Assembly (NCBI GenBank): GCA_023136265.1
Contig: JAGLRN010000025.1
Span: forward strand, 12,470 to 76,469
DNA: 64,000 nucleotides
DNA from: Thermoplasmata archaeon
GTDB taxonomy: Archaea; Thermoplasmatota; Thermoplasmata; RBG-16-68-12; JAGMCJ01
Direction: 5' to 3'
The notes below the pieces were generated by a model. That model was given only the letters and a program-made list of their open reading frames with translations, did no database searches and was not told where the DNA came from. Shown one piece after another: positions 7,701 to 57,870 of this stretch (position 1 is its first letter; each line of letters starts with the position of its first letter). Position numbers and translations under genes: made by a program.

Positions 7701-10467
7701 AGTTCTCCAGGACATCACTGTAATGCCCTTCAATCTCGCCTATTATCTCGACCATGTGAAGCGGCAGGAAGACGGGTTCGTCTCCCGCCACAACGCAGGC
7801 GAGGTACACGTGAGACCCTCTCTCGATGACGATCATACTGTTCCCGAAATCGAGCCTTTTAAGCCCTCCTTCACTTCTCGTCCTGAAGGAATCCTTGACG
7901 AATTCCTGCACAATGGTAAGCATGCCGGAGAAGATGTCCTCATCGATGTCCTCGCGGTACTTCCTAGTTTCATGTCCTATGAGCCTCCCATCGAGGTGGA
8001 CTAGGAAGACATCCTCCACCACATACGTCCCGTAGGACTTGATGGAGAGCTGTTTCGTCTCGTCGTGGCCGAAGACCTGATTATCGAAGGGCCTCTGGTA
8101 CGAGACAGACATGTCGACAGGGAGATCTCCTTCTTTCTTGGGTTTGACTCCCACCTCTATAGTCTTCGTCTCATTGGGATCTATCTCCGAGATTGTCTCT
8201 AGACCCCTGACTTCGAAATCACCTTCGAGTTTGATGTCGATGTTCTCGGACCTGAGGTTACCCTCGTTGATTATCTCCAGAATCAGGCGGTTCCATACGT
8301 CCGCCTCGAATCCCTTCGTAGGCATGTTGACAAATACCTTTGGATATTTGTCTTTGATGAAATCCTGAATCTTCTTTCCGGCTGACACCTCCGCTCTCCG
8401 AATAAGGTCCTTCGCCTGTACGATTTCCTGCTTCCCCAAGTACTCGTCTGCCATGCCAAGGAGCGCCTGCGCGTGTTCGATGTCGATGCCCATCGCCTTG
8501 GCTCCTGCAATCATCGTGGCTATACCCTGGCTCTTGGCTCCGAACCGCTCAATGATCTTCTCCTTCTCGGCCTCCCCCACTATGTCCCGAATCCTTCTGG
8601 AAAGCTCCATGACGGCGTCGTAATTCTCTTCGAAGAGGGCATCTCTTGCATCTTTCAGGAGGTCATTCGCATCTGAGACATCGGCCCCCATTCTCTCAAT
8701 ATCATCGATTGCGAACGATGCGCCCTCCAGTTCGTCCTGAGCCTTCGTGATGATATACAACCTCTTTGCCTTCTTGGCGGAGAGTTCAACTTTTGGAACG
8801 TAGGCCTCGATCTTCTGGAATTCCCCCCTCTCGAAGTCGGCGGACGCCTTGCGGTAGAAGGTTTCCGCTTCATCTACCTCCAGACCCAGCTTCTTCGAGT
8901 CGGTGATCATCACTTCCATTCTGAGAAGGCCGCCCTTTGCCAGGTCAACGACTCTCTCCTTCTTCGCCCTGTCAACGAGATTCCGCGCAATCTCAGCGTA
9001 CTGGAGTGCTTCGTCGATATGGCCCTCCTCAAGAGCTCTGAGTCCGTTCCTAACCGTTTCTCCTGCGGCTCCGATGTTGAGGTTCTCTTTTCTGGCCTCT
9101 TCTGCCTCCTTCTTGGCCTTTTGCAGGAGGTCCCTTGCAGCGACCGTGAGGGACTCCTTCAGACTCAGCGCCATCTCTTCGATTTCCGAGAGTATCTTCT
9201 CGGCCTTGGCCAGGTCTCTTACCTGGAAGGCCTGTTTCACTTCCTCGAATAAGTCCTCGACATAGGAGATGTCGACTCCGACCTTTCGAATCTCGTCAAC
9301 GATCTCCTTGATGTCCCCCAGTCTTTTCGACGCACCGAGCATTTGGATGGGAATGTCCTCATCCGTGGCTCCGAGTTTCCTCTTCTCCTTCGTGAGCCAG
9401 ATTCTAAGTTGAGACAGGTATCTGCGAGCGCGCCTATTGTCGCCCTTCTCCAGAGCTTCGCGCGCTTTCTCGGCTATGCCATCGGCCCGCGTTATGTCAA
9501 CCTCGATTGACTTGATGTACTCGATCTCCTGGCACATCGATTTGAGAGCGCTCTCGATTTCATTCCGGCGCGTCGCGCGATCCGCCTGTTTCCGAGCCTC
9601 CTTCGTCAGAGCCTTCACGTCATCGAATTCCCGCTTATGGAGAGCGGTCTCGGCCTGGCGGAGAGTCTCCTCGATTTCGCCAGTGTCCGCCCCTGTAGCC
9701 CTGGACGAATGCAGGGATTCCTCCGCTTTTTCGATGAGGTCGGAGGCTCTTTTGAACCGCTTGACCTCGTTGACCTCGGTGCGGGCTAGCTTCAGATATT
9801 CCTGGACTTCCCCATAGACAGCCCTTTCAAAGGACTCCTCGGCGCTCCTGAAGTATTCTCTGGCGACATCGATGTCTGCCCCGATTTCGTAGGCATAGTC
9901 GAGTTTTGGCTTGAAGTTCTGAATCATCACGCGGGCTCTTCTATTCCTCTTCGCCTCTGTGGCTTGCTTCTTTGCCTTCCTCACGAACTCGACGACATCA
10001 CCGTAGATGCCGCTTTCGAGAGCGATGTACGCCTTCTTGATGAGGTCGTGAGCTGTCGTGATGTCGGCACCGAGCTCTCGAGCCTTGTCGACGATGAGCT
10101 CGGCATTGAGAATCATGAGCTCTTTTTTCCTTTTCTCATTGGCCTCTCTTGACTTCCGAAGAAGGATCTTCGCCTTCCCCTCCGCCTCCTCGAAGTTCTC
10201 CTCTGACGCTATCCTTCTCACGTGGTCCAGAGCCACCTGTATGCTGGCGATCTCTGCACCGCTCTTCTTGGCGGACCTCAATGCTTTTTCCACGCTGGAG
10301 ATGAGCACCAGGACTCGCTTTTTCGCTGTGACGGCTCCAGTTTCTCTTCGAGGAACCTTCTCCTTCCCCGTCTCTGTGAGGGAATGACCGCAGTAGTTGC
10401 AGAATCTGCTACCCGCTTCCAGCTTCGCCTCGCAACGGGGACATCCTATCCTCTTCTCGTCTCCCAT
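4771..10467 (-). CDS. Giant cytoplasmic protein: N-terminal zinc ribbon, about 15 helical-bundle repeats, two [Ig-like + Roadblock/longin-like] modules, C-terminal IleRS-C-terminal-like domain
   Basis: 1898-aa ORF. It has CPRC..CNYC, recurring 'G(A/V)Dh..A..L...A...h..G.Y' repeats and a duplicated 'GTYhVEDVFLhH..G.Lh..E.RKYRED' module. Its C-terminus is collinear with the IleRS C-terminal region. No signal peptide or TM segment is visible. Confidence 0.9.
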   Translation of the reverse strand: MGDEKRIGCPRCEAKLEAGSRFCNYCGHSLTETGKEKVPRRETGAVTAKKRVLVLISSVEKALRSAKKSGAEIASIQVALDHVRRIASEENFEEAEGKAKILLRKSREANEKRKKELMILNAELIVDKARELGADITTAHDLIKKAYIALESGIYGDVVEFVRKAKKQATEAKRNRRARVMIQNFKPKLDYAYEIGADIDVAREYFRSAEESFERAVYGEVQEYLKLARTEVNEVKRFKRASDLIEKAEESLHSSRATGADTGEIEETLRQAETALHKREFDDVKALTKEARKQADRATRRNEIESALKSMCQEIEYIKSIEVDITRADGIAEKAREALEKGDNRRARRYLSQLRIWLTKEKRKLGATDEDIPIQMLGASKRLGDIKEIVDEIRKVGVDISYVEDLFEEVKQAFQVRDLAKAEKILSEIEEMALSLKESLTVAARDLLQKAKKEAEEARKENLNIGAAGETVRNGLRALEEGHIDEALQYAEIARNLVDRAKKERVVDLAKGGLLRMEVMITDSKKLGLEVDEAETFYRKASADFERGEFQKIEAYVPKVELSAKKAKRLYIITKAQDELEGASFAIDDIERMGADVSDANDLLKDARDALFEENYDAVMELSRRIRDIVGEAEKEKIIERFGAKSQGIATMIAGAKAMGIDIEHAQALLGMADEYLGKQEIVQAKDLIRRAEVSAGKKIQDFIKDKYPKVFVNMPTKGFEADVWNRLILEIINEGNLRSENIDIKLEGDFEVRGLETISEIDPNETKTIEVGVKPKKEGDLPVDMSVSYQRPFDNQVFGHDETKQLSIKSYGTYVVEDVFLVHLDGRLIGHETRKYREDIDEDIFSGMLTIVQEFVKDSFRTRSEGGLKRLDFGNSMIVIERGSHVYLACVVAGDEPVFLPLHMVEIIGEIEGHYSDVLENWSGLLTELEGVDEIIRRLMYVSDAAGADLVGLEKSRVVQTIGAIEEAKKAGADITEAEILIQDAMENMDKQDWKNAWDLVREAEDSANSARVQYIAMVEDQLAAAKEIVDKANELGIRMNEAEELFEIATQAINTGQFATITSIIDRIKDIISRGGLEIERLESEKNMREARLLVEAAKQEGLDVFEAERLLRSAESSYQSSDVDEVSSLLASVGGVVEKSRNKRWKGEIERRVDSLTSIVAKAREVGFDVTEANGLMVDARKVLESDDIDKMEAYLERLESPVEEIKKKLLLAEAEKRLSEIVTLVNRAKEAGLGVEEETQLTSDARSILDEGNLDELERIIMAVESSAGEKIDEFLKDKRPRLHVRLPKKGFQEDAWNRYRVEVENRGNLGAKDVEVRLDGDFEVKGLEPISEMDVNEKKHLDVGIKPKKSGEIPIDASISYRRPFDDKNYETYAQENLNVENAGTYLVEDVFLIHNQGNLVVRESRKYREDLNEKKFSTMIGAVQSFVKDSFSQQGSTGLSKLDFGESKVLVERGKSVHLAAVVMGDEPRLLSLYIIEILKEIEGTYGGVLLDWNGSMEGLEGIREIVRRLLFMSEFPGAELGALDDSVISRAFGLGRTPEPALARDEAEKLISDITKEIEEMGYEDIWKKVAESIPTAEGEEGEMPPGMTRDEAFSALSVEILKSEVGELDDEEKLRDYLALINGITSAVETARSEKVVDSDVPVLVAVLPDTQEIRETVETFERVIKGEANIRGLETVPVGDEWDGLKIEAIPHLDMILGKYRFWARKIETLLKSQSAWKIKRGLDKGAYFLGIEGQSVEISPSMVSFEILLPDNVVRRKFSGGSLYVSFPQTAEADDSTPSSGLAEGAEADGADELSITTEIVGRILEMRSDMNLEDEQRVEVKISANEDLLAELESQKDRIARETNSKSLDFVTKENIEGEDGYTIEWQVADETFMISLRQSQEAGSPA

Positions 10468-10701
10468 CGAATCGCACAGCCTCTTCCTCCATAAGTTGTT
10501 GGAAGCCGTGTATAAATGTGACTGCCTTGTTATCAGACTTGATACTTCCAGGTGTTCCGAATGAAATCACTTTTTGGCAGGAGAAATGAGATCGCAGGAA
10601 TGCATCTCTCGGGGCTACCGACGATTGGCAGAGTTAACCTTAAACAAGGTTAACCTGAATTCACTAGCTTGCGAGTGACTACTGGCCACAGTGCACAAGT
10701 G

Positions 10702-22375: not shown

Positions 22376-22825
22376 ATGGGAAGAACATCAAAGCTCAGAG
22401 GGAAGAGGACTCACGGAAGAGGCAAGAAGGCCGGTAGGGGCGCAGGCAAGCGAGGGGGCAGAGGTAACGCTGGCCTTCACAAGCACAAGTACATGACTAC
22501 AGTCAAGATGAAGGACCCCCACTTCGGTGACTACGGCTTCAGGAGACATTTCAGTCTCCTGGTGAAGAAGAACACAATCAATCTCGCAGAAGTCGAGGAG
22601 AGGCTCGACGAGATCATACTGGAAGGGTTCGCAGAAAAGTCCAAGAACCTCGTCACTGTGGACCTGGGAAAGATGGGGGTAGACAAGCTGCTTGGGCGAG
22701 GGCATGTCAGGATGAAGATGAAGATAGTCGTTAACGAAGCGTCTGAATCTGCCATCCGAAAAGTCCAGAAGGCGGGAGGAGAAGTAGTCATACCAGAAAC
22801 GGAGGAATCGGAGAGGAACGACTGA
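22376..22825 (+). CDS. rpl15: 50S ribosomal protein L15 (uL15)
   Basis: RGKRTHGRG, RGGRGNAG..KHK, KLLGRG, KAGGEV. Confidence 0.96.
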   Translation: MGRTSKLRGKRTHGRGKKAGRGAGKRGGRGNAGLHKHKYMTTVKMKDPHFGDYGFRRHFSLLVKKNTINLAEVEERLDEIILEGFAEKSKNLVTVDLGKMGVDKLLGRGHVRMKMKIVVNEASESAIRKVQKAGGEVVIPETEESERND

Positions 22826-24396
22826 TGGTCGAAGAGGGAAAGAGCAAGTTGTACGCCCTGAAACCCATCACGGACAGGCTCCCCGCGGTTGCGAAGCCTG
22901 TTGGACACGTCCACTTCAGGACCAAGATGCTCTGGGTCGTTCTCATCCTCGTTCTGTACTTCGCCCTGACCAACGTATTCATCTACGGCCTTGACCCCCA
23001 AGAAACCATAGACGTATTCGCGAGTCTCAGAGCCATCCTCGCTGGGGCACAGGGCTCGCTGATGCATCTGGGCATAGGTCCAATCGTGACCGGGTCCATC
23101 ATAATGCAGCTCTTCGCGGGATCGAAGATCATCAAGCTTGACCTGACCAACGACGAAGACAAGTCCGTGTACCAGGGCACACAGAAGCTCCTCGTCATCA
23201 TCATGATAGTCGTGGAAGCCATACCGCAGGTCTTCGGCTTCCTTCACCCTTCGGGGGACTTCGTTTCGAGAATGGAGGGGTTCGCCCCAGGACAGGGAAT
23301 GCTAATGGCGAACTCTCTGATAGTGGGCCAGCTGGTCATCGGCAGCTATCTGGTCTTCCTGATGGACGAGGTCGTCTCGAAATGGGGCATAGGAAGCGGC
23401 GTCAGCCTGTTCATTGCTGGCGGAGTCTCTCAGCAGATCTTCGTCGGTACGTTCAACTGGATCCCCACTGAGGCCGGTGGAGTACCCCCGGGTACCATAC
23501 CAAAGACAATGTGGTACCTGAACAACATGAGCGTTTCTGGTGTTTCCCAGGGAGGTTTTGAGCAAATCCTTCTCCAGGATCCAAATCCTGTGATTGCCTT
23601 GGTCGGGACTATGGTTATCTTCCTCATCGTGGCATATGCGGAGTCCATGAGAATCGAGCTTCCCTTGGCGCACGGCGCTGCCCGTGGTGCTAGGGGGAGG
23701 TATCCGATACGTCTCATCTACGCATCCAACATACCGGTCATACTGATGGCAGCCGTGCTGGCAAACGTGAGCATGTTTTCCCTCCTCTTCTGGAACAACC
23801 CGGACTGGCCCTTGGTCGGACAGAATTGGATGATTGGTTCATACCCAACGTCGGCAGCGGACGCGGAAGCTTTAGGTATCTCGCGTACGACGCCCATGAC
23901 GGGAGTAGCCTACTACCTCTCGACCGTGATGGGTGTGAGTGATTGGCTCCTCCCGCTTTTAGGTCCAGACAGGTACGAGCACCTCCTTAGAGGCCACACG
24001 TACCTGCAAGTGATCGCTCACCTTCTAATCTACGTGACGGTGATGATCGTAGGCTCGATAATCTTCGCCAAGTTTTGGATCGAGACTACGAACATGGGAC
24101 CGGAGGCGGTCGCCAAGCAAATCGAGGGTAGCGGAATGCAGATTCCAGGGTTCAGGCGGGACCCGCGGGTTCTCAGGAGAGTGCTGGAGAGGTATATCCC
24201 TGTGGTGACTGTCATTAGCGGAGCGGCTGTCGGCTCCTTGGCCGCGGGTGCAGACCTGCTGGGGACGGTCGGAAATGCCAGCGGAACGGGGGTCCTGCTA
24301 GCTGTGGGCATATTAATCCAGTTCTACGAGGCGATGGGCAGAGAACAGATGATGGAGATGCACCCGGTCTTAAGAGGGTTCTTCGGCTCGGAATGA
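22825..24396 (+). CDS. secY: Preprotein translocase subunit SecY (Sec61alpha)
   Basis: LGIGPIVT, SKWGIGSGVSLFI, YPIRLIYASNIP, QIPGFRRD, GTGVLLAVGI, and many TM segments. Confidence 0.98.
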   Translation: MVEEGKSKLYALKPITDRLPAVAKPVGHVHFRTKMLWVVLILVLYFALTNVFIYGLDPQETIDVFASLRAILAGAQGSLMHLGIGPIVTGSIIMQLFAGSKIIKLDLTNDEDKSVYQGTQKLLVIIMIVVEAIPQVFGFLHPSGDFVSRMEGFAPGQGMLMANSLIVGQLVIGSYLVFLMDEVVSKWGIGSGVSLFIAGGVSQQIFVGTFNWIPTEAGGVPPGTIPKTMWYLNNMSVSGVSQGGFEQILLQDPNPVIALVGTMVIFLIVAYAESMRIELPLAHGAARGARGRYPIRLIYASNIPVILMAAVLANVSMFSLLFWNNPDWPLVGQNWMIGSYPTSAADAEALGISRTTPMTGVAYYLSTVMGVSDWLLPLLGPDRYEHLLRGHTYLQVIAHLLIYVTVMIVGSIIFAKFWIETTNMGPEAVAKQIEGSGMQIPGFRRDPRVLRRVLERYIPVVTVISGAAVGSLAAGADLLGTVGNASGTGVLLAVGILIQFYEAMGREQMMEMHPVLRGFFGSE

Positions 24397-24398
24397 TC

Positions 24399-25316
24399 TC
24401 ATCTGAGTAGAGCGAGGAGCAATGCCTTCTGCGCGTGGAGGCGGTTCTCGGCCTGGTCGAACACGATTGATTGGGGGCCATCGATCACTTCACCGGTTAT
24501 CTCCTGTCCGCGGTGCGCGGGAAGGCAGTGCATTATGAGGCAGTCGGGTGAGGCCAGCGCAACCAACTCCGAGTTCACTTGGTAGTCGCTGAGGGCCTCG
24601 AGCCTCTTCTTGACCTCCCCCTCGTCGCCCATTGAGACCCATACATCCGTATAAATCACGTCGGACTCGTGGACTGCTTCCTTCGGGTCCCTCAGAATAT
24701 CGCACGTGGACCCTGCTCGCGAAGCCAGCCTTTTAGAATCTTCGACGATGCCCTGATCCGGCTCGTATCCCTCAGGACAGGCAACCGAGATATCGATGCC
24801 GATGAGTGAGCACGCGAGTAGAAGAGAGTTGCATACGTTGTTTCCATCACCGACATAGGTCAGCTTCAGTCCCCTGGGTGTCCTCCTCTCAGTGATCGTC
24901 ACGATATCCGCCAGGGCCTGGCAAGGGTGCTCCAGATCGTCGAGTGCATTGATCACCGGGATGGATGAATTGCTCGCCAGATCGAGAACCATCTCGTGGT
25001 CAGAGGCCCTGTAGGCGATGCAATCAACGTACCTGCTCAGTGTTCTCGCCGTGTCTGGAATCGTCTCCCCCCTCCCAAGCTGCATATCCTGCGGATTGAG
25101 GAACAGCGATTTCCCGCCCAGCTGGTTCATTGCGACCTCAAAAGAGACGCGTGTCCGGGTGCTGCTTTTCTCGAATATCAGTGCTAGCGTCTTACCTTTC
25201 AGAACCTCGTCAGTCTCACCTGACCGGCATCCCTTCTTCAGGTCGAGCGCCGACTGAACCAGTTCTGCGAACTCGTCCTCCGCGTCGAGCACCGAGACGT
25301 AATCCTTTTGCATCAT
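24399..25316 (-). CDS. argF: Ornithine carbamoyltransferase
   Basis: SSTRTRVSFE, HPCQALAD, GDGNNV, DVWVSMG, HCLP, FDQAENR. Confidence 0.97.
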   Translation of the reverse strand: MMQKDYVSVLDAEDEFAELVQSALDLKKGCRSGETDEVLKGKTLALIFEKSSTRTRVSFEVAMNQLGGKSLFLNPQDMQLGRGETIPDTARTLSRYVDCIAYRASDHEMVLDLASNSSIPVINALDDLEHPCQALADIVTITERRTPRGLKLTYVGDGNNVCNSLLLACSLIGIDISVACPEGYEPDQGIVEDSKRLASRAGSTCDILRDPKEAVHESDVIYTDVWVSMGDEGEVKKRLEALSDYQVNSELVALASPDCLIMHCLPAHRGQEITGEVIDGPQSIVFDQAENRLHAQKALLLALLR

Positions 25317-25409
25317 CGGGTCCTAGATGTCACAGGCTAACAATAAGTTTTCGACACGACAGAGAATATCGGCATTGATAACACAATACAAATCCTTATA
25401 TGATTTCAA

Positions 25410-26003
25410 GTGTTCGGAAAGACCCGAGGAATGAGCATTGGGGGAATCCCTTTGAAAAAGAAGATGAAGATGAAGATATGCATGGTCGGCGAAGGTGCAG
25501 TTGGAAAGACCAGCCTGATTCGAAGGTTCGTTCTCGATGAGTTCGACGACAAGTATCTCCAGACCCTGGGGACCAAGGTCTCCAAGAAGGAAATCGTTGT
25601 GGACGTCAAGGAAAAGGATGTGGAGCTTCAGATCGACATGACGATATGGGACATAATGGGTCAGAAAGGATTCCGAGAACTCCTGAAGGAAGCGTATTTC
25701 TACGGAGCCAAAGGCGTAATCGCGGTCTGTGATATGACCCGTAAGGACACGCTTTCCGAGCTGGACGACTGGATCGAGGGAGTCTACAGCGTGACCGGGA
25801 GGGTTCCGATAGAGTTCCTCGCGAACAAGGTTGATCTGAAAGATGATGTGGCCATCGACGAGAATGACCTAGAACAGGCAAGCCGGGCCTACGACTCAAG
25901 GTTCTTCTACACGAGCGCCAAGACCGGTGAGAACGTAGAGGACGCGTTCAAGGAGCTGGCCGAAAAGATATCCCGCACGAAGCTGGGAGAGCTCGAGGAC
26001 TAG
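25410..26003 (+). CDS. Rab-like small GTPase 1 (true start may be up to about 55 nt downstream)
   Basis: G1 GEGAVGKTS, G2 T, G3 WDIMGQ, G4 NKVD, G5 SAKTG. Confidence 0.93.
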   Translation: MFGKTRGMSIGGIPLKKKMKMKICMVGEGAVGKTSLIRRFVLDEFDDKYLQTLGTKVSKKEIVVDVKEKDVELQIDMTIWDIMGQKGFRELLKEAYFYGAKGVIAVCDMTRKDTLSELDDWIEGVYSVTGRVPIEFLANKVDLKDDVAIDENDLEQASRAYDSRFFYTSAKTGENVEDAFKELAEKISRTKLGELED

Positions 26004-26084
26004 TATCAACGCTGATAATCTCGTAGAAACCTATATCTGAGAACTTCCGTCTTTTTCAACCGCATCCATAGGGGATGGTGACAG

Positions 26085-26633
26085 ATGTTCGAAAGTAGCG
26101 ACACCATGAAAATGAAGATATGCTTGGTGGGCGAGGGAGCGGTCGGCAAGACGAGCCTCATCAGGAAATATGTGCTCGATGAGTTTGATGACAGGTACAT
26201 ATCCACTCTGGGAGCGAAGATCACGAAGAAGGAACTGATGTTTGAATACCCAGACAATGGCGGCGAGCTTCGAATTGACATGACGATATGGGACATCATG
26301 GGAGAGAAGGGCTTCCGCGAACTGCTCAAAGAAGCGTATTTCCACGGTGCACAGGGGGTCCTCGCGGTCTGCGATGTTACAAGGAAGAACACTCTACCTG
26401 AACTAGAAAGCTGGATAGCCGCTATCGAGACTGTCACCGGAAAGATACCTATCCGGTTCCTGGCCAACAAGGCGGACCTAAAGGACCAACTCACATTCAC
26501 TGAGAGTGAATTACGCGAAATGAGTGCCAAGTATCAGTCTGCCTACCTTTTCACAAGCGCCAAGACGGGCGACAATGTGGACAAGGCCTTCATCGAGATT
26601 GCCGACGCAATCGCGAAGAGAAAGGTCGCCTAG
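26085..26633 (+). CDS. Rab-like small GTPase 2
   Basis: GEGAVGKTS, WDIMGE, NKAD, SAKTG. Confidence 0.93.
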   Translation: MFESSDTMKMKICLVGEGAVGKTSLIRKYVLDEFDDRYISTLGAKITKKELMFEYPDNGGELRIDMTIWDIMGEKGFRELLKEAYFHGAQGVLAVCDVTRKNTLPELESWIAAIETVTGKIPIRFLANKADLKDQLTFTESELREMSAKYQSAYLFTSAKTGDNVDKAFIEIADAIAKRKVA

Positions 26634-26726
26634 TCTGAGAATACAGACTGATAATCAACATTGATAGCCGTACAAGAAGTGCTATTTATCGTGCGGATTA
26701 TTCGTAGAGGCGAAGGAGGCACCAAA

Positions 26727-27275
26727 ATGAGTGACGTCAGAAACATCAAGATGAAGGTCTGTCTCATTGGAGAGTTTGCCGTCGGCAAGACGAGTCTGAT
26801 ACAGAGATATGTCTACGACACTTTCAGTGATAGGTACATACAGACGATTGGTGCGAAGATCACGAAAAAGGCCCTATTGCTCCAATATCCTGAGCGGAAC
26901 ACGAATCTTGATGTCGACCTAACGCTTTGGGACATCATGGGGGAGAAGGGGTTCCGAGAGCTCCTCAAAGAGGCGTACTTCTACGGCGCCCAGGGTCTCT
27001 TGGCGGTTTGCGATATGACAAGGGAAGACACGTACTACGAACTCCCCACGTGGATCAGCGCTGTAGAGAGAATAGCAGGATCCGTTCCCATTGTCTTCTT
27101 GGGAAACAAGGTGGATCTCACGGAGTCCAAGACCGTAGAGGAAAACGACATGAAGATGATCGGAGATTCCTACGACTCGTCATATCTTCTGACAAGCGCG
27201 AGAACGGGAAGGAACGTGGAGACCGCATTCATGAGAATCGCAGACAAAATCGCGGGAAAGGATGTCCTTGCATAG
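26727..27275 (+). CDS. Rab-like small GTPase 3
   Basis: ATG follows a GGAGG. GEFAVGKTS, WDIMGE, NKVD, SARTG. Confidence 0.93.
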   Translation: MSDVRNIKMKVCLIGEFAVGKTSLIQRYVYDTFSDRYIQTIGAKITKKALLLQYPERNTNLDVDLTLWDIMGEKGFRELLKEAYFYGAQGLLAVCDMTREDTYYELPTWISAVERIAGSVPIVFLGNKVDLTESKTVEENDMKMIGDSYDSSYLLTSARTGRNVETAFMRIADKIAGKDVLA

Positions 27276-27316
27276 GCTTCATTCTCAATCTCGATAATTG
27301 CGGGGTAGGGTTCTTA

Positions 27317-27901
27317 ATGGCGTCTTCAGATGTGTTTCCTGCAATGTCTCTGGAATCGAAGGACCTCGAGATAGTGAAGACGAAGATCTGCCTTGTCGGA
27401 GAGGCGGCAGTAGGCAAGACCAGCCTGATTCGGAGGTATGTCCTTGACATGTTCGAGGATCTCTACATAGCTACGCTGGGAGCCAAGGTAACGAAGAAAG
27501 GCTTGCTGCTCCCGAAGCTCGATGGCGGCAACGACATTAAGGTCAACCTGATGATCTGGGACATCATGGGAGAGAAGGGGTTCCGAGAACTCCTCAAGGA
27601 AGCTTACTTCCATGGAGCTCAGGGCATACTGGCAGTCTGTGATGTCACCCGAAAGGACACGCTCCTGGAACTGAAGAACTGGATCGACTCGGTCACCAAG
27701 GTCACCGGCGAAGTCCCCGTAAGGTTCGTTGCCAACAAGATCGACTTGAAGGATGAGGCGCAGTTCGGAGAGGACGATGTGAGGGAGCTGAGCGAGGAAA
27801 TAGGTTCATCCTACCTCATGACCAGTGCAATGACTGGAGACGGAGTGGAGCAAGTTTTCGAGGAGATCGCGAGACTCATCGTGAAGAACATTGAGAGATA
27901 A
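27317..27901 (+). CDS. Rab-like small GTPase 4 (alternative start 27344)
   Basis: GEAAVGKTS, WDIMGE, NKID, SAMTG. Confidence 0.92.
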   Translation: MASSDVFPAMSLESKDLEIVKTKICLVGEAAVGKTSLIRRYVLDMFEDLYIATLGAKVTKKGLLLPKLDGGNDIKVNLMIWDIMGEKGFRELLKEAYFHGAQGILAVCDVTRKDTLLELKNWIDSVTKVTGEVPVRFVANKIDLKDEAQFGEDDVRELSEEIGSSYLMTSAMTGDGVEQVFEEIARLIVKNIER

Positions 27902-28041
27902 TCCTCCAGAGTCTCTTTTCTTCGTTCTGTGGTTCGAGAAATCATCTTGCCAGAGTCCGCCGTTCATATACAAACATTTAAGAGGGTGCAGAATTTATAT
28001 CAGAATTGCCTAGGTATGAGTGCATCCAGATTGGTGAATCG

Positions 28042-30027
28042 ATGAGTGGGGAGCCTACGAACTCTTCAGATGATGAGGACTTGCCTCCGATAGATGAGTG
28101 GATGGTGGGTCAGGACATCGGGTCCACTGCGGAGATTGAGATACCTTCAAGCCTCGTGGAACAGGTGATAGGTCAGGACGAGTCCGTTGTGGTCATCAAG
28201 AAAGCCGCAGAGCAGAAAAGGCATGTGATGCTCATAGGCGATCCAGGGACTGGAAAGTCGATGCTCGCCAACTCCATGGTAGAGCTGCTCTCAAAGGAGG
28301 AACTCCAGGACATTCTCGTCTATCACAATCCGGAGGACCCCAACGAGCCTAGGATAAGGGTAGTGCCCGCTGGCAAGGGAAAGGAGATAGTGAGTGCCCA
28401 GAAAGCGGAGGCCATGCAGAGAAGGGAGCAAAAAGCCTCTCTAATGATGACCATCATGTTCATAATCGTGGGGCTGGCCGTGATGCTCTCCATAAGGTAC
28501 GATTCTGCCACTGGAGCTATCTCCATCGACCCCACACCCCTGATGATAGGCATCTTGATAGCATTCCTGATTTTTATGTTCTCCAGATACACTGGACATA
28601 GGCAGGAAGCTCAGATGATACCCAAACTGCTGGTGTCCCACGATCCTGATGATCTTCCGCCTTTCATCGATGCCACAGGATCTCATGCCGGCGCTCTTCT
28701 TGGAGATGTTAAGCACGATCCCTTCCAGTCGGGCGGTCTGGAGACGCCGTCTCACGACAGAGTGGACGCAGGTGCAATCCACCGCGCCCACAAGGGCGTT
28801 CTCTTCCTCGATGAGATCAACATGCTAAGGTTGGAGAGCCAGCAGAGCCTGCTTACCGCCTTGCAGGAGAAGAAGTTCAGCATAGTCGGTCAGAGCGAGA
28901 GAAGCTCTGGAGCCATGGTGAAGACGGAAGCGGTGCCTTGCGATTTCATACTCGTGGCGGCTGGGAATCTGGATGCGGTCTCTGGCATGCATCCCGCCCT
29001 GAGGTCCAGAATAAGAGGCTACGGCTACGAGGTCTATATGAAGAGCATCATGAACGACACGCATAGCAACAGAGTGAAGCTCATCAGATTCGTAGCGCAA
29101 GAAGTGTCCAAAGACAAGAAGATCCCTCACTTCGATAAGGGTGCCGTCACCGAGATCCTCCGAGAGGCGAGAAGGCGGAGCGGGAGGAAGGGAAGGCTGA
29201 CCTTGCGCTTGAGAGAGCTGGGCGGCCTCATCCGAGTCGCTGGGGACATCGCCACAGAGGATAAGGCTCCGCTCGTCACAGCCGATCACGTTTACAGAGG
29301 AAAGAAGATTGCCAGGTCGCTCGAGCAGCAGATCGCAGACAGGATAATAGAAGACAGGAAGATGTACGCCACATCCATGGTCGAGGGAGAGGCTGTCGGA
29401 GTTGTCAACGGTCTGGCGGTCCTGCACGGTGCAAGCGGCATGGTGGAATTCTCCGGCATCCTTCTTCCGATTGTGGCTGAGGTGACTCCAGCCCAGACGA
29501 AGGACGGCGGGAAGATAATCGCAACGGGGAAGCTGGGAGAGATAGCCAGAGAATCCGTGCAGAACGTGTCCGCCCTAATCAAGAAGTTCACGGGCCAGGA
29601 CATAAGTAATCACGATATTCACGTTCAGTTCGTCGGAAGCAGTGAAGGAACAGAAGGGGATTCCGCTTCCATATCGGTTGCCACGGCTGTGATATCCGCA
29701 CTTGAGGATGTGGAGGTCGACCAGAGCGTCGGAATGACAGGGTCGCTGAGCGTCAGAGGGCAGGTCCTTCCGGTTGGTGCCGTGACGGCCAAGATAGAGG
29801 CGGCTGCAGAGATGGGTCTCAAGAAGGTAATCATTCCCAAGTCCAATATGAAGGATGTCCTGCTGGAGGACAAGTACATAGGGGAGATCGAAGTGATCCC
29901 AGTCGAGACGCTCAAGGATGTTCTAGTGCACGCGCTCGTCGGAAAGAGGAAGGAGGGTCTTCTGGAGAAACTGGCTGCGTTGGTCTCGAAATCGACGACA
30001 CCGATCGATAGAGCCATTCCCCAATAA
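28042..30027 (+). CDS. lonB: Archaeal membrane-anchored Lon protease LonB
   Basis: Walker A GDPGTGKS, two TM helices inside the AAA+ domain, Walker B LFLDE, catalytic EGDSAS and a later K (TAKIEAA). Confidence 0.96.
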
Positions 30028-30039
30028 GAAGGGGTTCAT

Positions 30040-30192
30040 TTGAGCCAGACGGAAAGCTGCGACGAATATGCCTTTCACAAGGAATTGGACAGCGATCTCG
30101 ACGACGAATCTTGCGAGCATTGCTCGAAGTACCTGACAGTCTACTGCCCCCACATAGATGAGTTCTTTGAGGAGGGTTTCGATGAGGACTGA
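30040..30192 (+). CDS. Small acidic Cys/His-rich protein (50 aa), absent from the ORF track
   Basis: TTG start after GAAGGGG. MSQTESCDEYAFHKELDSDLDDESCEHCSKYLTVYCPHIDEFFEEGFDED* fills the lonB-nadM gap and overlaps the nadM start. Confidence 0.7.
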   Translation: MSQTESCDEYAFHKELDSDLDDESCEHCSKYLTVYCPHIDEFFEEGFDED

Positions 30193-35829: not shown

Positions 35830-38800
35830 CTAGTCGCCATCATCTACTTCGGGTGGTGGAAGCATCTCCGAGGGCACCTTGTAGCCCTTCTTCGACACGA
35901 CTATGTCGACGGAAATCCCGACGATGAGAATTACTAGGTTGACCACTAATCCCACCGTAATCCAGTTGCCTCCTTCAGGCACTCTCAGGATACCCGTCAG
36001 ACTGGAAAGGATTGCGATGGCGATCTCAAGCAGTGATAGAGGAAGGGCAAGGATGGCGATCGTGAACATCCTGTCTCGAGAGAATTTCCTCAGAAGTGCA
36101 TCCTGGTCGAGAGGACTCAGTTTCTCTCCTATGGGTTGACTCCTCATCTGCCTTCTGTACACGTCAATCTCCTCATCCGGCATGTCTTCCGGTATCGGAA
36201 CGAATCTGTCGAGAGGTCTCACGTATCCGACGAGGATTCCGAGAAGAACAAGAATGATGGCAAGGATCAGGGCAAGGAGGGGTTTCCAGTTGTACTCTTC
36301 CTCCTCTTCAACGACCTCGATTATGTAGGAGAGCACGTTGTTGGTCTCGTTTGCCTCGGATATGGAGTCCATGTAGTCCACGTGGAAGACGACAACGTAA
36401 GTTCCAGCCTTCTCGGGAGCCCTCCAAGTGGCTTCGATCTCAGCTGTCATCCTGCCTACAATCAGCGTTCCCTCCACTTCCCTGGCAAACGGGAGACTGG
36501 ACATCGTATCGTTGTAGAACGCGTTGTCGAACGGGCCTCCGGTAGTGTAGTTCCCTATGTTGACTATGGAGGCTGAGAGAGTGAGGGTTTCACCTGCCTT
36601 GGCTGGATGGGGCCCGTCATAGGGAAGCCCGTTGATCTTAGGACCCACTGCCACGAGGTCAGGTGGGAGTGGGGTCACAATGAGGACGACCTCGAGCACA
36701 TTGTTTGCTTCGTCTACCTCGAGAACGTCATCGTAGAAATCGACCTCGAAGACAATGGTGACGTTCAGATAGTCCATGGGGGCGTGCCAGGTGGCGTTGT
36801 GCCATTGTGATAATCCTGGCGAGAGCTTTGGAGCGCCCGAGAGGAGGAGTGGATTATTCCTCTCAGTGGAGTTGTAGATGCCGACGTAGAAGCTAGAAGG
36901 CGTCACGTTGGTCCCAGCGTTGACCAAGACTCCGGTCAGGAGAATGGTCTCGCCCCCCGTGACCAAGACTGGATTGGTGTAGTGTACAGTGTTCACAAGG
37001 AAATCAAGAGCCACGAGGTCAGGACCCACCAAGCGGAACAGGATGTTGAACTCGTTGTTGTCCTCATCAGCTTCTGATACATTGTCCAGATGATCAACGG
37101 AAATGACAACAAGGTAGTCTCCCAAGGACTGCGGAGTCTGCCAAGCGACGTCAATCAGGGAAATGGACGCCGATGCATCCAATGGCCCCAAAGGGCCGCT
37201 CAAATCAAACAGCTGGCCATCTTCGATGTATCCTACGGTAAACATATCGATGGAGAGAGCTCCCTGATTGTGAATGGTCACATCGATGAGAACCTCGTCG
37301 GAGATGTCTACAATAACGGGACCAACCGGGGAATCCGAGTATTCGTACTGGTTGCTGTTCCCGCTCACGTCTATTGTGACATACAGAGGTATCAAGTCAG
37401 GACCCTTGACTACGATGGTCAGTGTGAAAACGTTGTTTGTCTCATTCAGCTCGACGATGTCGTTGGCGGAGTCAGCCACTATCGTGATTAGGTGGAGTCC
37501 TAGGACACCGGGATTCGTCCAGCTGGAGTTAGTCAGGATGCGCTCGCCGGGACCCAAGGACGGACAGAGGTTCGAGTAGAAACCAACGGAGTCAGCGAAG
37601 TACTCCGTTAGGAATGTCCCATTCGTTCCGATGCCCCCATGATTCTCTATCGCTACTTCGATATGGACTATGGATGAGATGTTCACCTCTACGGTTGGCG
37701 TCTCTGGATAAATGTACTGCGTTGTCAGCCCGTCCACCGTCAGATTCACCTGCCACGGGATGATGTCGGGACCTTTGACGATGATTGTCAAGGTGAAGAT
37801 GTTGTTTGACTCGTTCACCTCCACGATCTCGTCCGCAGAGTCTGCGACTATCGTAATAGTGTGCAGGCTCGGGACTCCGGGATTAGTCCAGCTGGAGTTT
37901 ATCGGGCTCGTTGCACCGGGACCCAAGGCATCGCTCAGGTTCGAGTGAAAGGCAATTGAGTTGTCCAAGAACTCCGTGAAGAACGTCCCATTCGTTCCGA
38001 AGTTGCCCCGGTTCGCGATCTCGGCTTCCAGGCTAACGACTGAGGTTATGTCCACTTCTATAGTCGGCGTCTGAGGATACGCGTACTGGGTTGTCACGCC
38101 ATCAACGGTCAGATTGACCTGGCTCGGGATGAGATCGGGACCGCCGATGACAAGGTGTATCGTGAACGTATTGTTGATTTCGCTTTCCTCCTGGATCTGG
38201 CTTCTATTGTCGACGGTGATGTTGATGTACCGGTCCCCCATGTCAGAAGGGACACTGTACCCGAGAACCCCAAAGGGTCCGTCCGTAGAACCTGGAAGCA
38301 GTGGTGGAACGTTGCTCCATTCGGCAATGTGGTCCTGGATTGGATTCAAGGGACCGTCACCGACATAGTAAAACGAAAGCTGAGTGTCGATGCCCACTGG
38401 GGACTGGAAGACGCCGACATTGCGGACGCTGGCAGTCATGTTCATCAGATCCCCGGGAAAGACGTAGATCGGATCCGAGATGTAGCTCGCGGCCGATGCG
38501 TCAGGATAGGTGAGGCTTGATCCGTCCTGGAGCTCGACTACGATGTCAACTGGCGTCAGGTCGGGAACGTCCACGCCGAAGCAAACGACGAACGTATTGT
38601 TCGTCTCCGAAACCTCACTGATGTTTCCAGTCCCGTCAATCCCGTAATCGACCGTGAGATTCAGGCAGTGATAGCCCGTTTGGTTGGGGATTCGTAGGTT
38701 GGACACAAAGGGACCTGTCGAACTGCCCGCCATGAGCGGACCCACCTGTCCGCTATTGAAGAGTATCGAAACTGGCGGTCCGCCAGATATGCTCCCCGTG

Positions 38801-39855
38801 CTTACGATCACGACGTTGAACTGCGCACCGGTCTCGTATCCACCGACGTTTGTCGCGTTCAGGCTGATGGTTATGTCGTCGCCGGGGTTCACGGGAATCA
38901 CATCAGAATAGAAGGGCGGGATGGTTATTGACGGGTCGGCGTAAGAGTAGTTCCCCGACGGCGTTTCGATCAGGATATCGCTTGGCGAGAGGTCGGGTCC
39001 CTCCACGTAGAAGAGAATCGTCGCGGAGTTGTTGCCCTCGTCGTATTCGGTCACGTTATCGTAGAAATCCACAGTGTAGTTGAGGAGGCATTCCCCGACG
39101 AAGGGCAGGGCTGGCGCGGTCCAGATCATGCTGAACCTCGTTCCGAGCGGCGCGGAGGATCCTGCATCTATCTCTTGTATCTCCCCGATATGCTCGAAGG
39201 CCCCGCAGGAGTCATCAAGCGTGGCTGTGTTCAAGATTCTTATGAGGGGTGTACCCGCGTTCGTCACGTTGGCCTCGACCAGGTGAGAAGTGCCCGCGAG
39301 AACGACTATCGGGCCTATCGGCACGGCCGGGTCATAGGGACCGGGATACTCGATTCCGTCGACGGCGATGGCGAAAGGCTGGAGGTCGGGTATCGGAACG
39401 ACGACGTCCCACTGTTGAGTGTTGTCCGGATCGTTCCACATTATGATGTTGTCGAGCTCGCCGTAAGGAGGGAACTCACCGGGATCGCCTGTCCCGTGGC
39501 TCGTGGCGTTCGTATCGAGCCCGCCAAAGGCAGTTGCATCCAATTGGACGCGGTATGTGTCACCGTTGCTCCAGTTGACGTCCCGCTCAGCCGCCTCAAG
39601 CGTGTACGCGTACCAGCCACCGCTGGTGAGGACCCAACCGGCTTTCGGAAATCGATTCCAAGAACCGCTGTGGAGCACCCAGATGGCGAAGGGCGTGCTA
39701 TCTTCCCACGGGAGGCCCTGGAGAGGTGTGTCGTCCCAGAGGAAGATCCTCCCCTCCAGATTCATCTCCTCAGGTTGGCCTGTTGTTGATTGTGCCAGCG
39801 TCACGATCGTAAGGAGCACGAGGAAGGACACCGCAATCGACCGCAGCTTCATCAT
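35830..39855 (-). CDS. Large membrane-anchored surface protein with about 9 CARDB (Ig-like) repeats
   Basis: Signal peptide, repeated 'PDL...N.G...VD....h.E.NE.NN' units, and three C-terminal TM helices. Confidence 0.88.
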   Translation of the reverse strand: MMKLRSIAVSFLVLLTIVTLAQSTTGQPEEMNLEGRIFLWDDTPLQGLPWEDSTPFAIWVLHSGSWNRFPKAGWVLTSGGWYAYTLEAAERDVNWSNGDTYRVQLDATAFGGLDTNATSHGTGDPGEFPPYGELDNIIMWNDPDNTQQWDVVVPIPDLQPFAIAVDGIEYPGPYDPAVPIGPIVVLAGTSHLVEANVTNAGTPLIRILNTATLDDSCGAFEHIGEIQEIDAGSSAPLGTRFSMIWTAPALPFVGECLLNYTVDFYDNVTEYDEGNNSATILFYVEGPDLSPSDILIETPSGNYSYADPSITIPPFYSDVIPVNPGDDITISLNATNVGGYETGAQFNVVIVSTGSISGGPPVSILFNSGQVGPLMAGSSTGPFVSNLRIPNQTGYHCLNLTVDYGIDGTGNISEVSETNNTFVVCFGVDVPDLTPVDIVVELQDGSSLTYPDASAASYISDPIYVFPGDLMNMTASVRNVGVFQSPVGIDTQLSFYYVGDGPLNPIQDHIAEWSNVPPLLPGSTDGPFGVLGYSVPSDMGDRYINITVDNRSQIQEESEINNTFTIHLVIGGPDLIPSQVNLTVDGVTTQYAYPQTPTIEVDITSVVSLEAEIANRGNFGTNGTFFTEFLDNSIAFHSNLSDALGPGATSPINSSWTNPGVPSLHTITIVADSADEIVEVNESNNIFTLTIIVKGPDIIPWQVNLTVDGLTTQYIYPETPTVEVNISSIVHIEVAIENHGGIGTNGTFLTEYFADSVGFYSNLCPSLGPGERILTNSSWTNPGVLGLHLITIVADSANDIVELNETNNVFTLTIVVKGPDLIPLYVTIDVSGNSNQYEYSDSPVGPVIVDISDEVLIDVTIHNQGALSIDMFTVGYIEDGQLFDLSGPLGPLDASASISLIDVAWQTPQSLGDYLVVISVDHLDNVSEADEDNNEFNILFRLVGPDLVALDFLVNTVHYTNPVLVTGGETILLTGVLVNAGTNVTPSSFYVGIYNSTERNNPLLLSGAPKLSPGLSQWHNATWHAPMDYLNVTIVFEVDFYDDVLEVDEANNVLEVVLIVTPLPPDLVAVGPKINGLPYDGPHPAKAGETLTLSASIVNIGNYTTGGPFDNAFYNDTMSSLPFAREVEGTLIVGRMTAEIEATWRAPEKAGTYVVVFHVDYMDSISEANETNNVLSYIIEVVEEEEEYNWKPLLALILAIILVLLGILVGYVRPLDRFVPIPEDMPDEEIDVYRRQMRSQPIGEKLSPLDQDALLRKFSRDRMFTIAILALPLSLLEIAIAILSSLTGILRVPEGGNWITVGLVVNLVILIVGISVDIVVSKKGYKVPSEMLPPPEVDDGD
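37404..38142 (-). repeat. Tandem duplication of a CARDB unit (period about 369 nt)
   Basis: GPDLIPSQVNLTVDGVTTQYAYPQTPT... versus GPDIIPWQVNLTVDGLTTQYIYPETPT..., with clearly similar DNA. Confidence 0.8.
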
Positions 39856-39924
39856 TGCCCTCCAAGAAGCGTTGTCGGCGCTTGGCTTCTCTCCAGCACA
39901 ACGGAAGCTCATATCGATACAACC

Positions 39925-42900
39925 TCAGACTCCGGCAAACCCAAAGACCACATCTGATGAAACGTTGATCTTCAGGGTGACGAACATCGCGAATTCCCTG
40001 TCGTAGACTCCTGCCTCCATGGCCGGAATATGGGGAACCCACCTCGACTCGGACTGCTTGAACCAAAGGACTACAAGCGCGTCCGTGATGTAGTCAGCGT
40101 AGTAAGAAACGTTATGATAGGCGTACTGCCCGTTCGAGAATGGTTTCAAGGGAAGCGAGATGGCTTGATAACCCTGCGTGAAGCGCCCAATCCATATGCC
40201 TGAGCTGTAGCTACCAGAACCCGTACCAAGCGAGGCGTTCAGCGGGAAAATCATGTAGTAGAACTCGTCATATGGCTCGAAGATGGCGTTCACGTGATCC
40301 ACGCTGACCACGGGGCCCGCCGGAGGCACGTAGGAACTGTACAGCGACCAGTAATCCAACCCTGGCTCTCCATAGAACCCTACTCTGCTGTTCGAATAGT
40401 AAATGTCATACGCGTCAGAGCCAATGGGCTGTTGCCAGACGATCCTGATGTTATTGCCCACGATGCCGAGCTCCAGGTTCTTGGCGTTTCCCGTGTGGTC
40501 AAAGCCGCCGAAGAGGAGCTCATCGTACCTGATCATGGTCCCAGGCAGACCCACGAATGTGAAGCGCACGTCGGACCCGAGTTCCACCACACAGCCTTCC
40601 CCCACCTCAATTGCCCGGGTAGGATCGCCACTGCCAGGAACCCTCAGCCAACGCTCCGCCTCCATGTATTCGAGGTAGCCCGCGCCGAGCGCGGTCCTAT
40701 ATTCGTCCGTCGTGTCTATTCGAGCGGCCCCGTCGTACTCGACCCATGGGAAGTATTCCAGGGGAATCGAGAACGTGTTGAATCCTGCGGAGAAAGTGTT
40801 GGTCCATGCACCAGCTGTGTTACTGGTCTCACTGACATCGCTCTCGTTCGCGTTCGCCGCTCTTATCAGGTAATAGTACTCACCGTCATGGCTGGCTGCT
40901 CCTCCCGCCTCTGGATCCACCCAATCGGTCGTCCCCGCTGGAACCTCGTCATACGCCGCGGCGGGAGACAGGTCGGGGAACCCGTTCTGTGTCTGTGACC
41001 TGAAGATGAGGTAATGGTCCAGTTCTGGCCAGGGAACCTCGACCCATCTGAGACCTACGTCGGCTCCACCGTCCCAGTATGTCTCCACGTGCTTGGGCGG
41101 GGCGGTGTAGTATGTCACCGTAATCAAGACGAGAGGGAAGGGGACCGTGGTCTGGTTGCCATCCCATTTCACATATGCAACGCGGGCATCAGGATAAACT
41201 CCCACGGGATTAGTGCCAATGAGGTCGGAGGTGACATCGTACTCAACCTCCCAAGTCTCATTAATCAACAGTCTACTGATATTCCACTGCATGAATGTGT
41301 ACAAGCCTCTGCTGCCAATGAAGTGTGGCAGCTTGGGCAGGCCTGAGACAGGATCTCGGAAAGAGCCAGTCACGATGTGTATGTAGGACGGAAGGACGTC
41401 CTCGATCATCGGGAAGTCATCGGAGACATCCAAGTCCCGACCCGCCACCTGGTCGACTATCGTTCCGATCTGCTGGTAGATGCCTACCAGATCCTCGGGC
41501 GTCTCAGCATAGAAGTACTCACCCCCGGTTATGGCGGCGATGTTCTGGAGCATGCCATGGTCGGCGTCTAAACCTAAGCCAATCGTATAGATGACCACGT
41601 TGTTGGCCGCAGCGTTCTGAGCCTCAGTGACGGGATCGAGGCCTGAACCGCTCCGCCCGTCTGTTAGAAGAATACATACCCAGATATGGTTTGGGTCAGC
41701 GTCCGACACGAGGTCATTCCAGCATGCATTTATTCCAGTTCCAACTGCGGTTCCTCCGCCAGCAACAAGAACACTGTCTATGTCCGCCTTGATCTGCGGG
41801 TAATTCGTGCTGAGCGGGTTCCTTCGCGTCACAACCGTATCGAAGAATATCACCGCGCCTTGATCGGGAAACTTCATGTCGTCGACGTAGCTCTTTGCGC
41901 CTAGCTTGGCATAATCGAATTTCGTGGGTGGCTCGGGTGGATTGGTTTGCTGGTTCATGCTGCCAGACTTATCTATGAGGAAAATGACATCCTGGGGAAC
42001 GGATTTGACTACCCCAGAGCCCTGGCCTGTGACAGTTAGCCGGACAGTCGCGACGGTCGGATAGCCAGGACCCGCGCTTTCGTGGAAGATTGTGGACGGT
42101 GCCACGCTTTTCACTGGCTCGATGTGGGGGTATACCCTCACGAGAAGGCTTGCGCTGTCCGACGCCAGTGTGGTTGACGAGGCTGTGCCAGTGACAATGA
42201 CCGACTGATAGCTCCCGACTGGGGGACTTGAGGGGATGTTCACACCGATTTTGAACTGCAACGTTTGTTCCGGGCTGAGAAGTCCAGAGTCCGGGATGCC
42301 GTCACCGTCTCCAGGGGAATCCAATAGAGGGAAGATGCCATTGTCCTGAAGTATTTCAATCGTCCAATTGTTCGGTGTACTCGTCAACGTTATGTCGATG
42401 TAGTCCGAGACAAGTTGCTTATTAGTCACCGTCAGATTCAGGAGCAGTCGTTCTCCGACCTCCCCATGAGTCTCATAGTCGGGACCCAGCACCACAAGCG
42501 GGAGCGTCGGAGCCATATCGAATTTCCAACCTGCATTTGCGGAGCTGAGGTCATCGTAGCCATTCGACGTCCCATTCCCGTTGGGGACCCGGGTCATGGA
42601 GAAACCCTGTGTATGAGGAGAGCTCCATCCTGCCATGTCGAGCAGCTGTCCAGTTGAATCGTAAAGGTAGACGTTATCCGCCATAGAACTCAAGGAGTCG
42701 AAGAATCCCGAGTTCATTGGATACCTCAGCACGTAATAGGGATTGGCCTCAGTAAGGACGATTCCACCCACAAGATAATCCTGATTGCAGACAATCGAAT
42801 AACCCATGAGGTCGACAGACCCGGCGCCTCTGTAGTACGTCTCTACGAATGCTTCATCAGGAGCATTTGGATAGAACAGAACCTCATTGAGCACAACTTC

Positions 42901-44634: not shown

Positions 44635-44813
44635 AGGTCCTCCTCCAAGGAAGATCCGCAGAACAAACGGTAGGTTCGCGCCTCCGTCTCTGCCCACTAT
44701 GCCAATTAATGGCATGGCGTGTATATATATTTTCCCTGCCAGCCCCCAGGTCACATCCGCCCTCGAAGTTGATAAATATCTTCTTGCCCATCGTTCCCCG
44801 AGGAGCTGGAAAC

Positions 44814-57718: not shown

Positions 57719-57870
57719 CGGTTGCCTCCAAAGGTGTTTGCACGGAAATCTGTGTCCCGAAGGTTTGCATCCCATCCCTTCAGTGAGCAGTGCTTCACGG
57801 CCCTCGCCGTTCCCATCTTTCTGGCTAGCGTTTGAGTCGCACAGACTTCCGCGCCTTGCACGTCCTTTGT

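Follow-up and report, generated by a model that had tools for sequence, protein, structure and literature searches.

Expanded repertoires of Ras/Rab-like GTPases are commonly taken as a eukaryotic hallmark in Asgard archaea. Here we describe an array of four genes for small GTPases (GTPases 1 to 4) in a Thermoplasmata archaeon, encoded within a stretch of 64,000 nucleotides (nt), hereafter the window, which is part of contig C39 of the assembly and to which coordinates refer unless another contig is named. Together with further paralogs elsewhere in the genome, these genes probably represent a co-regulated family of Rab-like GTPase switches that goes back to an old three-gene module, which we consider the best overall explanation.

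The Rup families (Rup1 bacterial, Rup2 from Thermoproteaceae, Rup3 from Heimdallarchaeia; PMC4316618; bioRxiv 10.1101/2024.02.28.582541) and RasL of Asgard archaea are, like the proteins studied here, stand-alone prokaryotic Ras-like GTPases uncoupled from MglB (PMC4316618). Rup2 has been duplicated extensively, a genome holding as many as six copies, and has no conserved neighbours (PMC4316618); the family described here is multi-copy as well, but with 16 copies. Rup1 resembles most of the window proteins in lacking the G3 Gln (PMC4316618), whereas the family genes here lack the Rup1 neighbours (coiled-coil protein, OmpA-domain protein, diguanylate cyclase or kinase). No Thermoplasmatota group is listed in the accessible descriptions of the Rup1, Rup2, Rup3, RasL and ArfR groups (PMC4316618; bioRxiv 10.1101/2024.02.28.582541). 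From the same phylum, Rab-like GTPases have been reported in a Thermoplasmatales archaeon and in Aciduliprofundum, with one copy per species and on long branches (Surkont and Pereira-Leal 2016, PMC4915359). Those proteins and the ones presented here share the lack of a prenylation Cys, but the copies found here number 16 per genome, with a conserved array and a common putative operator. Among proteins of solved structure, the highest similarity is to eukaryotic Rabs and to the Thorarchaeota Rab (Thor-Rab, 7ezb), which likewise have one G domain (~170 residues) in which all of G1-G5 are complete. Thor-Rab also agrees with the family in having no Cys-containing C-terminal extension (PMC10933270). 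The family differs in lacking a hypervariable tail and in its Thermoplasmata host. Rab-type naming is already in use in databases: relatives appear as "Rab family GTPase [Thermoplasmata archaeon]" at NCBI and as "small GTP-binding protein" at JGI. New here are the conserved array and a TATC-N6-GATA palindrome common to the GTPase genes; a search of the accessible literature found no published description of such an arrangement.

The four open reading frames (ORFs) lie on the + strand at 25410/25431-26003, 26085-26633, 26661/26727-27275 and 27317/27344-27901. GTPase 1 (25431..26003) has 190 amino acids (aa) when read from the ATG at 25431, the ORF being open from a GTG at 25410; it carries the P-loop GEGAVGKTS and a Gln at the position of Ras Q61 (WDIMGQK). 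In the other three, Glu replaces this catalytic Gln. GTPase 2 (26085..26633; 182 aa; WDIMGEK) is a genus-level copy. GTPase 3 (26727..27275), whose ATG at 26727 follows a GGAGG in an ORF open from a TTG at 26661, has Phe at the Ras-G12 position (GEFAVGKT), and GTPase 4 (27344..27901), starting at ATG 27344 or ATG 27317, has Ala at this position and a G5 motif of the form SAM.

All four match the Ras model PF00071 over its whole length (model positions 1-160/161) with E values of 5.5e-35, 8.7e-34, 5.1e-35 and 8.4e-34 (116.9-120.9 bits, cut-off 21.6), and they score 57.8-68.6 bits with TIGR00231 (small_GTP, cut-off 42.5). GTPases 2-4 are 51-60% identical to GTPase 1, with GxxxVGKT, the switch-I Thr, WDIMG, NKxD and SA being invariant. 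The preliminary description of this DNA, made from the sequence alone, had reported four co-oriented stand-alone GTPases with complete G1-G5 motifs; this was confirmed by re-reading of the ORFs, by PF00071 and by alignment, with which the motif strings quoted there agree. No domain besides the G domain was detected in the four proteins (182-194 aa; domain search at E<=0.01), in line with the reported absence of LRR and COR domains. As predicted proteins, the four are thus genuine single-domain members of the Ras superfamily, a known kind of protein in a well-defined new variant.

The array is a quarter of a larger family. In the genome (1.80 Mb in 120 contigs, estimated 92% complete with 0.75% contamination), PF00071 matches 16 ORFs on 11 contigs, and a profile built from the four array proteins recovers the same 16 with E values from 1e-44 to 4e-106. 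G1, the switch-I Thr, G3, G4 and G5 are kept in 16/16 paralogs, G5 varying between SAK, SAR and SAM, and the family signature reads KxK[IV]CL[VI]G[ED]xAVGKTSLI ... [IV]WDIMG[QE]K ... NKxDL ... TSAKTGxNVE. The paralogs account for ~0.9% of ~1750 non-overlapping ORFs of at least 60 aa, so that close to one in a hundred ORFs of this 1.8-Mb non-Asgard genome belongs to one Rab-like family. The same kind of expansion is seen in every relative searched within the order: all 41 genomes, including seven others of the genus and 33 from six other families, have 7-21 PF00071 matches. This survey of copy numbers, for which the preliminary description had called, leaves its picture of a four-gene "switchboard" too narrow. 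Across the phylum, the array profile has matches at E<=1e-10 in 54 of 301 sampled genomes; in several of the other classes there are at least 10. When the profile of the 16 paralogs was run against 1.84 billion cluster representatives, 2909 proteins were found at E<=1e-30, the best 150 all scoring at least 206 bits. Since a 16-member family exists in a non-Asgard genome, large families of small GTPases also occur outside Asgard archaea and eukaryotes. As an aside, in some small genomes of another class (G068, G271, G301 and others) the family matches include one in-frame TGA each; recoding, sequencing errors or pseudogenes may be the reason.

A palindromic element common to the array genes escaped the preliminary description. 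The sequence TATC-N6-GATA is located just upstream of the TATA box of the array genes, ~12 nt before the element resembling a B recognition element and TATA box (BRE/TATA). Exact copies are found upstream of GTPase 1 (25367..25380, position 25367 of the window being 37836 of contig C39, with the TATA-like TTATAT at 25396-25401) and upstream of GTPase 2, directly after the GTPase 1 stop codon (26004..26017); copies with one mismatch precede GTPase 3 (AATC-N6-GATA, 26653..26666) and GTPase 4 (TCTC-N6-GATA, 27283..27296). The same element stands at the same place in 43/67 related position-1 loci. In relatives, exact palindromes occur 75-107 nt upstream of the KxK core in 134/201 array genes, and 50 more have a site with at most one mismatch; for all 130-nt segments of the same loci the figure is 139/5387, the array sites themselves included. 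In the genome studied here we counted 47 exact sites, 26 of them outside long ORFs. Exact sites precede 7/16 paralogs and one-mismatch sites four more, where ~0.08 exact sites would be expected in 16 x 200 nt (Poisson P 5e-12). Other sites followed by a TATA element precede two DUF835 genes, a KaiC-like gene, three clustered genes for small winged helix-turn-helix (wHTH) proteins and a gene for a 240-aa wHTH protein. The palindrome would therefore tie array genes and dispersed paralogs together under a common putative operator. A different candidate motif, YBGATAAY, was rejected: it is not enriched across the window (17 occurrences, 13.4 expected) and seemed to be missing before genes 2 and 3, and the recount with TATC-N6-GATA superseded it.

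In Thermococcales, the glycolytic motif TATCAC-N5-GTGATA is bound by TrmBL1, which acts as activator or repressor, tied to the place of binding (PMC4706686). The palindrome shares with it the TATC/GATA half-sites near archaeal BRE/TATA elements, but differs in spacing (TATC-N6-GATA against TATC-N9-GATA) and in the genes concerned, which are GTPase and KaiC-type genes here rather than genes of sugar metabolism. The three small wHTH genes (114-129 aa) are paralogous and stand in a row at locus L099 (contig C49, 7712-8949, - strand), with a palindrome before each. Two of the three show weak TrmB/HTH_20 matches (E 5e-7 to 4e-5; with ~24-30 bits they reach the Pfam cut-offs or fall slightly short of them), and the three proteins are candidates for the palindrome-binding factor. 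Separately, within the window, a palindrome (10531-10544) and a TATA element precede the gene of a 1898-aa protein (4771-10467, - strand) with a zinc-ribbon-like N-terminal start (CxxC...CxxC) and a weak CARDB match.

Further hints come from neighbouring genes and domain fusions. Of 78 long relatives, four combine the family G domain with DUF835 in one protein and about five combine it with TPR; DUF835 is listed as 'iKaiC', an inactivated KaiC-like domain, in a table of PMC5847659. At locus L087 (contig C4, 5101-11825, - strand), a family GTPase stands in a same-strand row with a 1358-aa PAS/GAF-HisKA-HATPase kinase, a KaiC-like/DUF7504 gene and a KaiC-like gene fused to an Arf-like GTPase domain. 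Two paralogs adjoin STAND genes (AAA_16 plus TPR), and one paralog has a C-terminal TPR. Taken together, neighbours, fusions and the common palindrome point to cytosolic signalling tied to an archaeal KaiC-type network and not to membrane trafficking. A role in defence was not indicated: none of 11 GTPase-containing proteins matched a defence family in PADLOC, where only TPR models matched the two STAND neighbours. As the preliminary description had noted, no mglB gene adjoins the array; the three Roadblock/LC7 genes above the Pfam cut-off in the genome lie on other contigs (C8, C48 and C36), none adjoining a GTPase gene, and the single V4R gene of the genome does not stand beside one either. 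At L093 (contig C48, 4749-6107, - strand), a Roadblock/LC7 gene adjoins a V4R-domain gene and a CBS-pair gene, and the three are possible GTPase regulators encoded away from the GTPases. With respect to expression, contigs assembled from two RNA runs cover parts of the region 25300-30100, namely 249 nt on GTPase 2 (1 difference), 208 nt on GTPase 4 (4 differences) and pieces of lonB, the gene for the archaeal membrane Lon protease downstream of the array.

Arrays linked to lonB comprise three genes in 44 related loci and four in 10. The position-1 genes and GTPase 1 form one clade (FastTree Shimodaira-Hasegawa-like support 0.957, 215 sequences; IQ-TREE approximate likelihood-ratio test (aLRT) 82.4, 52 sequences). 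The middle genes of three-gene arrays group with GTPase 3, their orthologue (FastTree 0.965; aLRT 90.9), and the last genes of these arrays form a clade of their own (FastTree 0.949; aLRT 92.6). The pairing of GTPase 2 with GTPase 4 received an aLRT of 1.1 and a FastTree value of 0.768; the trees trace neither of them to a parent orthogroup. At the Ras-Q61 position, Gln is present in 59/59 position-1 genes, and Glu in 47/47 middle and 48/48 third genes of three-gene arrays; the middle orthogroup carries Val, Phe or Ile where Ras has G12. Signatures kept so strictly within each group suggest that the roles are non-redundant. Judged by position and phylogeny, the array is an ancient module of three positional orthogroups, conserved across the order, plus one extra copy in this genus. 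It had been called "locally amplified", which fits the additional copy in the genus; orthology by position across the order speaks against a recent amplification of the remainder.

On this basis, the following scheme appears probable to us. The four proteins would be soluble nucleotide-dependent switches, presumably binding and hydrolysing GTP, from a Rab-like family that is specific to Thermoplasmatota and counts 16 paralogs here. The array would derive from an old three-gene module whose first gene is Gln-type and whose second and third are Glu-type, with one further copy in the genus. Each gene would have its own promoter with the palindrome ~12 nt upstream, as would most dispersed paralogs and the DUF835, KaiC-like and small winged-helix genes, and one dimeric transcription factor would turn the GTPase genes on together. 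The products may in turn serve as switches in the cytosol, in concert with KaiC-type, STAND/TPR and histidine-kinase partners. Because the palindrome is common to GTPase and KaiC-type genes, a co-regulated signalling network is the most likely interpretation. The putative operator before most paralogs also offers a tractable handle for finding the transcription factor, the partners under joint control and the condition that induces expression.

Several points weigh against this scheme. No contig from the RNA runs bridges two genes, and these contigs are short and may include DNA carry-over. The term 'Rab-like' expresses a ranking by similarity, not a phylogeny. PF00071 also has matches at E<=0.001 in 13/14 control genomes, so the counts for the relatives may include a few other GTPases. 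The genome-wide total of 47 palindromes is unexceptional, given that palindromes of the same composition occur 1-47 times (TTCA-N6-TGAA 45 times); only the placement of the element is exceptional. Finally, none of 20 family genes examined in other orders and classes (16 genomes) showed the palindrome upstream, which would make the regulon order-specific.

A more far-reaching version is considerably more tentative. It holds that one Thermoplasmata order possesses a multi-paralog network of Rab-like GTPases outside the Asgard-eukaryote line, with a dozen or more GTPase genes in a TATC-N6-GATA regulon shared with DUF835, KaiC-like and wHTH genes, and with the conserved core trio next to lonB (one Gln-type, two Glu-type) acting as one switch unit. 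If true, archaea evolved large networks of small-GTPase paralogs repeatedly, and such networks are not per se a sign of eukaryote-like membrane trafficking.

The fixed gene order of the array, along with a strictly conserved catalytic-site signature for each orthogroup, raises the question if the three ancestral proteins, one of Gln-type and two of Glu-type, assemble into a heteromeric GTPase complex. We consider such a complex rather doubtful, and equally so the corollary that, by analogy to dimerisation-activated G proteins, its subunits would activate one another across their nucleotide sites. Polypeptides with two to four tandem Ras-like domains do occur among more distant relatives, but they score only ~100 bits per domain with the profiles of the array orthogroups, compared with 200-350 bits for true members, and are therefore not fused orthologues. 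In addition, every array gene has its own promoter and operator.

About as doubtful is a coupling of the array to LonB, by which the GTPases would control activity, localisation or substrate choice of the protease, or vice versa. The array was reported to lie between secY/argF and lonB, and in the window this is correct: secY (22825-24396, + strand) and the ornithine/aspartate carbamoyltransferase gene argF (24399-25316, - strand) flank it upstream, and lonB (28006..30027, + strand, likely start ATG 28042) downstream. In related loci, only the lonB side is conserved. In 56 of the 59 that extend far enough, lonB follows the last array GTPase on the same strand within 1.5 kb, whereas argF is found in 5/69 loci and secY in those five plus four more, i.e. 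among the closest relatives. Such synteny in the face of a variable upstream side makes a functional link between array and lonB possible. On the other hand, lonB has its own BRE/TATA-like element, conserved in relatives (TATA-like TTTATA at 27994-27999 in the window), and no palindrome is present between GTPase 4 and lonB in the window; lonB is therefore a separate transcription unit. The linkage was also not seen outside the order: in five genomes from other orders of the class, 0/20 family matches were on the contig of lonB, and in five genomes of other classes none of the matches listed adjoined lonB, the nearest being 9 kb away on the opposite strand (G076). Synteny inside one order may be inherited rather than selected.

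That the proteins are true functional Rabs, acting as membrane marks in a vesicle or endomembrane system such as that proposed for Asgard archaea, is improbable in our view. Among solved structures they come closest to Rabs: the best 60 matches of GTPase 2 in the PDB comprise 59 Rab-type proteins and one Ran, and with the profile of the 16 paralogs 60/60 best matches are Rab/Ypt/Sec4 proteins, with Rab1, Rab8, Rab6, Ypt and Sec4 among the best solved structures. The top match of the family profile is Thor-Rab (E 9.9e-41, 142.9 bits), and Rab1A reaches 140.2 bits. Family members score >200 bits among themselves, in contrast to at most 143 bits for any Rab, and the family G3 motif, WDIMG[Q/E]K, differs from WDTAGQE in Rab27B. 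An alignment of GTPase 2 with Rab27B gave only partial matches (LGAKI/VGIDF, GFREL/RFRSL, YFHGA/FFRDA, AVCDVT/LMFDLT) in segments that we take to be the RabF motifs. The preliminary description had stated that a C-terminal Cys lipidation motif is lacking, and indeed no Cys occurs in the last six residues of the four window proteins (0/4) or in the last five residues of array members from relatives (0/198). With a median of four residues after the G domain in array members, there is no hypervariable region. The neighbours and fusion partners, moreover, are of the signalling type (kinase, KaiC/DUF835, STAND/TPR) and not of the trafficking type.

Still less likely is that the broad Ras model has mislabelled Roc, MglA, Arf/ArvA or ribosome-biogenesis GTPases. 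The Roc model does score 89.9-93.6 bits over 119 positions, per position about the same as Ras, and the array lies 3 kb from a cluster of ribosomal protein genes. However, ROCO proteins combine Roc with COR in a multidomain architecture, while the array proteins are short and have no COR; Arf gives 36.8-51.8 bits, and the Era, Der, EngB and Obg models only 15-22 bits against cut-offs of 124-406. The MglA family lacks the G3 Asp and is coupled to an adjacent mglB (Roadblock) gene (PMC4316618), whereas WD, including the G3 Asp, is present in 16/16 paralogs, none of which adjoins a Roadblock gene. For ArvA, arvB (DUF2073) and arvC (DUF2072) are located downstream (PMC10927574); downstream of the array genes there are further GTPases and lonB, without DUF2073 or DUF2072 neighbours. 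The ribosomal neighbourhood is limited to close relatives.

A foreign origin of the genes, be it an Asgard- or eukaryote-derived fragment, a chimeric contig or a recent transfer, can practically be dismissed, although bin 26001-28000 has the lowest GC content of the window (0.498 vs 0.506-0.570 elsewhere) and Asgard archaea provide one of the two best PDB matches, as the family is present throughout the order and in other sampled genomes of the phylum, the contamination estimate is low, and gene order and relatives tell the same story. The order L30-L15-secY-argF-four GTPases-lonB-NMNAT is repeated in five records of metagenome-assembled genomes (MAGs; L013-L017), with TctA also present in the three that extend further, and all 69 related loci, taken from species-representative genomes, are titled Thermoplasmata, Thermoplasmatota, Methanomassiliicoccales, Methanobacteriota or Euryarchaeota archaeon. 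The remaining window genes are archaeal housekeeping genes. For these reasons the contig is Thermoplasmata and neither Asgard nor chimeric, and the non-Asgard host assumed in the preliminary description was borne out.

Two of the dispersed paralogs (L087:17116-18039, C4_28115; L088:1802-2692, C21_1802) carry an N-terminal domain of ~110 aa, which among 61 genomes searched in the order occurs only in the eight genomes of this genus. An AlphaFold2 (AF2) model (predicted local distance difference test, pLDDT, 80.9) has the order beta-alpha-beta-beta-alpha-beta, a predicted ferredoxin-like fold. Foldseek gave no PDB match at E<=0.001, the ESM Atlas no usable match, and a VIA-wide search generic ferredoxin-like folds (best Z 6.1); neither Roadblock nor longin was among the Foldseek or VIA-wide matches.

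Some other genes of the window deserve mention. An ORF of 1490 aa (42-4514, - strand) encodes a class I tRNA synthetase resembling isoleucyl-tRNA synthetase (IleRS; tRNA-synt_1, Anticodon_1, DUF5915) joined to a helix-hairpin-helix, double zinc ribbons and, at the C-terminus, DUF835; should this be one gene, the fusion would be unusual. At 35830-44754 (- strand), two adjoining giant proteins of 1360 and 1609 aa with CARDB repeats and BNR, lamin-tail and VWA domains are probably surface proteins. Finally, a short protein of 286 aa (56915-57775, - strand) has a Tubulin/FtsZ GTPase domain (E 2.3e-27), and its gene adjoins one for a ribbon-helix-helix protein.

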